DNA of 683 nucleotides from the NCBI RefSeq assembly GCF_003334335.1, contig NZ_QOWQ01000158.1. One strand, 5' to 3'. Positions 1-62 of this stretch are shown here, in pieces. Numbering within the stretch: the first letter of the stretch is position 1; the number at the start of each line of letters is the position of its first letter. Below the pieces are notes generated by a model. The model was not told where the DNA came from and ran no database searches. It was given only the letters and a program-made list of their open reading frames with translations. Made by a program: the position numbers and the translations under genes. The DNA is from Escherichia coli. Lineage in GTDB: Bacteria > Pseudomonadota > Gammaproteobacteria > Enterobacterales > Enterobacteriaceae.

Positions 1-26
1 TGTTCAGTGATGGTTTTCGTTACCAT
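1..26 (-). CDS. 5' end of the downstream gene, putative phage head decoration protein (lambda gpD / phage 21 SHP family); partial, continues beyond the window start.
   Basis: Seen in sequence: minus-strand ATG at 26..24, preceded by GAGG (40..37) with a 10-nt spacer, reads ATG GTA ACG AAA ACC ATC ACT GAA = M V T K T I T E and stays open to the window edge. Established knowledge by recall, unverified: this N-terminus matches what I remember of phage 21 SHP, and in lambda the D gene follows Nu3 directly. Only 8 codons are visible. Confidence 0.5.
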
Positions 27-36
27 ATTGTAAAAA

Positions 37-40
37 CCTC
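37..40 (-). promoter_or_regulatory. Probable Shine-Dalgarno (GAGG) for the downstream decoration-like gene
   Basis: The minus strand reads GAGG-tttttacaat-ATG. This is a weak 4-nt core and the 10-nt spacer is on the long side. Confidence 0.4.
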
Positions 41-62
41 ATATTGATGGTCAGCACTGACT

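Follow-up and report, generated by a model that had tools for sequence, protein, structure and literature searches.

What do the genes that meet at one end of this stretch of Escherichia coli DNA belong to, and how would they be expressed? The window (the whole stretch analysed, 683 nt) has all of its coding sense on the minus strand, as read directly from the sequence. An earlier note, made from the letters alone, had described a scaffold-like coding sequence, a 36-bp spacer with a Shine-Dalgarno sequence and a gene beginning MVTKTITE, in that order on the minus strand, and this description is accurate to the base. We conclude that an E. coli phage or prophage, lambdoid and of the phage 21 type, is almost certainly the source of the window, which covers part of its late head-gene operon: a scaffold domain with an internal start, a spacer and the start of the decoration gene shp. 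The features on which this reading is built are as follows.

63-683, minus strand: C-terminal part of the S49 protease/scaffold gene, 206 codons plus stop (phage 21 gene 5, analogue of lambda C; 501 aa in full)
670-674, minus strand: internal Shine-Dalgarno GGAGG, 4 nt before the predicted nested-gene ATG (665-663)
63-665, minus strand: nested in-frame scaffold gene, predicted product 200 aa (phage 21 gene 6, analogue of lambda Nu3)
495-598, minus strand: Tri1 box, the first of three, with coordinates transferred from the M81255 repeat_region
348-458, minus strand: Tri box, the second, likewise transferred from the M81255 repeat_region
204-317, minus strand: Tri3 box, transferred from the M81255 repeat_region
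63-65, minus strand: TGA stop common to the protease/scaffold gene and the nested scaffold gene, at the same position in all ten loci compared
27-62, minus strand: intergenic spacer of exactly 36 nt, AGTCAGTGCTGACCATCAATATGAGGTTTTTACAAT, which would lie within the late-operon mRNA
36-40, minus strand: shp Shine-Dalgarno GAGGT, 9 nt before the ATG (10 nt if counted from GAGG at 40-37)
1-26, minus strand: start of shp, the first eight codons plus 2 nt (MVTKTITE...), with the ATG at 26-24

This identification rests on annotated records and PDB sequences that match exactly or nearly so. Escherichia phage PhiR5_1 (PV340545), a 51-kb record deposited as a complete genome with E. coli C as host, is identical to the window over all 683 nt, as are at least five E. 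coli strain chromosomes, the EC2 prophage among them. Phage 21 is 92.3% identical to the window, both in the head operon record (M81255) and in the complete genome (OL657228). Every one of the 20 phage matches is an Escherichia phage, and 1,870 of 5,426 complete E. coli genomes (about a third) contain the window sequence, in up to five places per genome; the enterobacterial host that had been suspected is thus E. coli. The last 100 nt of the window, read along the coding strand, are the same in PhiR5_1 and the EC2 prophage and differ from phage 21 (M81255) at two positions, both within the 62 nt that hold the junction: one is the base before GAGG, which is T in the window and G in phage 21, and the other is the choice between GTA and GTG in shp codon 2, which is silent. 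Judged by this agreement with phage 21, the junction match is far beyond chance. A literature search found nothing relevant on the PhiR phage records.

The genes around the window are those of a head module. In both PhiR5_1 and the EC2 prophage, the genes upstream on the same strand are, in order, terminase small, terminase large, W, portal and the S49 peptidase gene (501 codons), and those downstream are a 115-codon decoration gene, major capsid, FI, FII, Z, U, V, G, T, tape measure, M and L. In lambda-style names the annotated order is Nu1, A, W, B, C/Nu3, D, E, FI, FII, Z, U, V, G, T, H, and M81255 names the same stretch 1, 2, 3, 4, 5, nested 6, shp and 7; the M81255 annotation also has ribosome-binding sites at both of the positions found here and three 'Tri box' repeats inside gene 6. 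The gene after shp is gpE-like, matching the lambda major capsid chains in 7VI9 (E 5e-134), and the decoration gene lies between the protease/scaffold gene and this major capsid gene, an order taken from annotation and checked for the capsid gene against the lambda gpE structures. The PhiR5_1 head module is collinear with that of phage 21 (1-2-3-4-5/6-shp-7) and is 94.4% identical to M81255 over 6,770 nt. The earlier note had placed the junction in the late structural operon of a lambdoid phage or prophage and had proposed looking for a gpE-like capsid gene downstream and, upstream on that strand, for portal and terminase genes. All of these are present in the identical loci, along with W and the protease gene upstream and the tail genes downstream, and the placement therefore holds. 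For E. coli H77, the S49 peptidase alone is listed under the window match. Decayed copies also occur among E. coli prophages: in an O157:H7 strain the major capsid gene is truncated, and in strain A1.S1.126 the S49 gene carries a frameshift; shp is intact in both (L011 1455-1475 for O157:H7 and L014 1-1013 for A1.S1.126).

Is the gene that starts at the window's edge a decoration gene of the phage 21 kind? The coding strand ends with ATG GTA ACG AAA ACC ATC ACT GAA CA, which translates as MVTKTITE. The window itself holds residues 1-8, and in records identical to it over 683 nt the gene runs to 115 codons. Truncation of shp just past the window in the source contig is possible, as the full reading frame was read from these identical records. 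The 115-residue product, taken from PhiR5_1, is identical to phage 21 SHP at 107 of 115 positions (93%) without gaps, the substitutions being S33Q, P34A, T47S, V62A, A75V, H90R, A105V and S107T. Sequences of the SHP crystal structures 1TD3, 1TD4 and 1TD0 match over residues 1-115 (E 1.8e-67), and the lambda gpD structures 1C5E, 1VD0 and 7VII match at about E 1e-28 to 1e-29 (1C5E: 1.5e-28). Profile searches agree along nearly the whole length of the protein: the Pfam family HDPD (PF02924) matches at E 1.4e-23 over model positions 1-114 of 116, and PHROG 49, 'head decoration', matches at E 1.1e-29. NCBIfam gave no family for the decoration protein or for the scaffold domain, and matched the protease only with SppA-type models below their cutoff. 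Among 122 phage records with a tblastn match, the listed alignments that begin at residue 1 are mostly to phage 21-type records at 90% identity or more, with PhiR47_2 (50.5%) as the sole listed exception. This pattern places MVTKTITE with the SHP subtype, and the earlier reading of these residues as the N-terminus of a phage 21 SHP/gpD-like protein was correct, with a downstream reading frame that is similar to both SHP and gpD.

The other side of the junction proved to be more elaborate than a single scaffold gene. The reading frame that ends at TGA 65-63 is open to the edge of the window at 683, and its translation runs HDTGGT-MPQLTATE...MLMAMP before the stop. No in-frame stop lies upstream of the ATG at 665-663, so the scaffold-like reading frame is the C-terminal part of a longer gene. 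In both identical loci (L001 and L003), window positions 63 and 665 map in frame into a coding sequence at 7116-8621, annotated as 'S49 family peptidase' or 'preconnector protease C / scaffolding domain Nu3'. The full 501-residue protein contains a Pfam Peptidase_S49 domain (PF01343, E 2.6e-35) at residues 146-293, that is, in the N-terminal part of the long product and outside the window; it resembles the SppA structures 3RST and 4KWB (about E 4e-16), and PHROG 53, head maturation protease, matches it end to end (E 2e-224). Within this gene, the 200-residue product of the predicted internal start is identical to phage 21 gp6 at 181 positions (91%) and is matched by PHROG 8399, head scaffolding protein (E 8.5e-37); M81255 annotates the corresponding gene at 5475-6077, and OL657228 labels it 'scaffolding protein'. 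The internal start has its own ribosome-binding site: the GGAGG is annotated as such in M81255 (5464-5468) and in OL657228, and the start region, GGAGGCACTATG, is kept in all ten related loci although adjacent upstream codons vary between lineages. To judge from the sequence, the arrangement is the lambda C/Nu3 design, in which protease and scaffold share a C-terminal domain by way of an in-frame internal start. The scaffold-like coding sequence of the earlier note is thus indeed a scaffold but not a stand-alone gene, as it is nested in the gene for the 501-aa S49 protease (5/6, like C/Nu3).

Just upstream of the internal Shine-Dalgarno, the 8 nt at window 676-683 (minus strand) cannot be aligned with phage 21, and the relatives fall into two sequence types at this edge, ..CATGATACA.. 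and ..AATGTCAGA... This pattern suggests that the protease/scaffold gene is mosaic here or contains a recombination boundary.

The scaffold domain contains three tandem repeats of about 50 residues each (window 204-598), with the core ..IMxxEEAKGxExLAxxLAxxPxMTVExARxIL... Local alignments between them score far above shuffled sequences (z = 16.8 for the first and second repeats, 16.0 for the second and third, and 12.2 for the first and third), and every one of them shows 43-54% identity to the one copy present in lambda Nu3 (residues ~111-176). The repeats are clear at the protein level alone; a DNA-level repeat search of the window returned short, weak pairs only. M81255 lists the Tri boxes as 'function unknown', and none of the solved structures matches the scaffold repeat domain by sequence.

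Some other patterns within the coding sequence were noted. The second Tri repeat is spanned by an imperfect inverted repeat of 23 nt, with arms at 339-361 and 464-486 that are 74% complementary and lie 102 nt from each other. The cII-binding pattern TTGYN6TTGY, matches to which are annotated in OL657228, occurs twice on the plus strand, at window 413-426 and 647-660, antisense to the head genes; 0.22 matches are expected per window, and two were reached in 5 of 200 shuffles. Both are probably chance matches, and their conservation is uninformative because they lie within coding sequence. A terminator-like hairpin on the plus strand (359-375) was discarded as a candidate, being antisense within coding sequence and no more frequent than the shuffle expectation of 0.9.

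We then compared the junction itself across ten loci of the phage 21 type, two from phages and eight from prophages, at 90-100% identity. In all ten the spacer is 36 nt and shp is 115 codons, and the GAGGTTTT core and both ATGs are unchanged. The shp ribosome-binding site is annotated in M81255 (6098-6103) and in OL657228. Five spacer positions vary among the ten loci, including the base before GAGG: window position 41 is T here (ATGAGGT), G in phage 21 (AGGAGGT) and C in two prophages (ACGAGGT), so that the Shine-Dalgarno sequence in the window is one base weaker than that of phage 21. Its distance of 9-10 nt from the ATG is at the long end of the usual range. Mean pairwise divergence in the spacer is 6.3%, compared with 1-4% at first and second codon positions of the flanking genes and 7-10% at third positions; as the spacer falls between the two codon-position classes, it is not unusually conserved outside the Shine-Dalgarno core. 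In each of the flanking genes, divergence is about three times as high at third positions as at the first two, a sign of purifying selection on both. The shp gene shares its reading frame with the protease/scaffold gene, and three in-frame TGA codons lie between them (65-63, 53-51 and 41-39). The predicted fold of the minus strand from window 100 to 1 is not extra stable (-22.4 kcal/mol, where shuffles average -21.0; z = -0.42), and an Rfam scan of the whole window on both strands, with E values up to 1, gave no match. Neither a structured RNA element nor a conserved local promoter was found in the spacer.

Because lambda has the same architecture, we asked whether the head module could be of the lambda type proper, with a decoration protein that is the gpD of Lambdavirus. 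The lambda genes C/Nu3/D/E (J02459 4418-7160) likewise encode an S49 protease with a nested scaffold, a decoration protein and a major capsid protein; the decoration protein is in the same Pfam family as gpD and matches its structures well, and several records annotate it as 'head-DNA stabilization protein D'. However, against the 93% identity to SHP over 115 residues, identity to lambda gpD is 58% over 95 residues, and the first 17 residues, MVTKTITE included, are unaligned, the N-termini of D and SHP being unrelated. At the DNA level, the near-identity of the head module to phage 21 contrasts with 66-70% identity to lambda in patches only. In addition, the lambda Nu3-D spacer is 9 nt rather than 36, and Nu3 has one copy of the repeat where three are present here. 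Because of these identity figures we regard a lambda-type module as refuted, its probability being negligible. Phage 21 (M81255, OL657228), by comparison, has the same gene order, the nested 5/6 pair, the MVTKTITE start, three Tri repeats and a spacer that is also 36 nt, identical to the window's at 35 of 36 bases; it differs in its stronger Shine-Dalgarno sequence and by 8 amino acid changes in SHP and 19 in the scaffold. More distant relatives retain the protease(/scaffold)-decoration-capsid order, namely N15 (genes 5/6/7/8, with the nested scaffold annotated) and phi80 (05/06/07), but their decoration proteins are ~50% identical to the window-type protein, their spacer is 9 nt with AGAGG, and the N-terminus is another one (MAITEVF...). 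A further question is whether the window might come from a decayed, non-functional prophage, with the junction as a relic. Many E. coli copies do sit in prophages, as many as five per genome, and among the relatives are some with a frameshift in the S49 gene or a truncation of the capsid gene. Against this, the exact 683-nt sequence is present in the complete phage genome record of PhiR5_1, the EC2 prophage has its full set of head and tail genes annotated as intact, and the roughly threefold higher divergence at third positions speaks for purifying selection in both flanking genes. A relic is therefore unlikely, although of these alternatives it is the one to which we would give some weight.

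The remaining alternatives assign the spacer a local function. An internal sigma-70 promoter (CTGACC, 16 nt, TACAAT; window 54-27) could in principle drive shp and the genes downstream; it is the one promoter-like match, agreeing at 9 of 12 positions where 0.2 such matches are expected per shuffled window. Its -10 hexamer, though, abuts the ATG, such that transcription would begin no earlier than the start codon and leave out the Shine-Dalgarno sequence, and in five of the ten related loci the hexamer reads AACAAA or AACAAT. Moreover, lambdoid phages transcribe their late genes as a single late message under Q antitermination. Misplaced relative to the ATG and broken at its -10 in half of the relatives, the candidate was rejected, and a working promoter here is highly improbable. 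Comparably remote is the idea that a 20-codon reading frame (window 66-4, minus strand, MKSVLTINMRFLQYGNENHH) acts as a coupling or regulatory micro-gene across the shp start. Such a frame exists, and its ATG overlaps the TGA stop (ATGA), an arrangement typical of translational coupling; yet in five of the ten loci a TAA ends it after 11 codons, it has no Shine-Dalgarno sequence of its own, and it crosses the shp start in a different frame, where the shp codons determine what it reads. On these sequence features it is most likely not a gene.

A late head-gene segment of the phage 21 type is thus the reading we carry forward, and from the sequence identity, gene order, domain content and conserved start signals we infer how it would be transcribed from the late promoter, how its two start sites would be used, and what its products would do in assembly. 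As in lambda and phage 21 biology, the genes would be carried on one long late mRNA, making a local promoter unneeded. The protease/scaffold frame would be translated from two starts, with both products ending at TGA 65-63. Other ribosomes would load independently on GAGGT (40-36) and begin SHP at ATG 26-24, and this separate loading would supply SHP in capsid-stoichiometric amounts whatever the level of protease/scaffold translation. The protease, scaffold and portal would nucleate a procapsid of the gpE-like protein, and the scaffold and protease would then be removed. In lambda, an initiator forms from C, Nu3 and B, the procapsid is built by E, and D joins later; cleavage of the scaffold and protease, and their exit from the prohead, come before the DNA is packaged (PMC3224144). 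By analogy, the same order of events would apply here. Once packaging has driven expansion, trimers of SHP would settle on the gpE-like lattice at its three-fold positions and thereby stabilise the head. SHP is homologous to gpD and, bound as a trimer at three-fold sites, makes the capsid more stable (PMC7602432); at 93% identity the protein encoded here is predicted to bind the expanded capsid in the same way.

The junction is ordinary, already described and very common in E. coli; the earlier remark that it is context and not novelty is borne out, as the region was already sequenced and annotated in M81255. Given that annotation, the SHP crystal structures and the presence of the sequence in about a third of complete E. 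coli genomes, no new question is opened. Three minor points are left over: a spacer of 36 nt where lambda, N15 and phi80 have 9, the variable base in the Shine-Dalgarno sequence, and a scaffold repeat present in three copies. It is conceivable, but on the present sequences doubtful, that the fixed 36-nt spacer with G, T or C before GAGG serves as a natural dial on the SHP:scaffold ratio, and that together with the triplicated repeat it gives a different scaffold valency and decoration dosage; the polymorphism at base 41 may equally be neutral, given that spacer divergence lies between those of the two codon-position classes. The finding is of use only for annotation: the window can be labelled as late structural genes of a phage 21-type lambdoid phage or prophage in E. 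coli, on the minus strand, and this assignment explains the window's reading frames, internal start, protein repeats and spacer.
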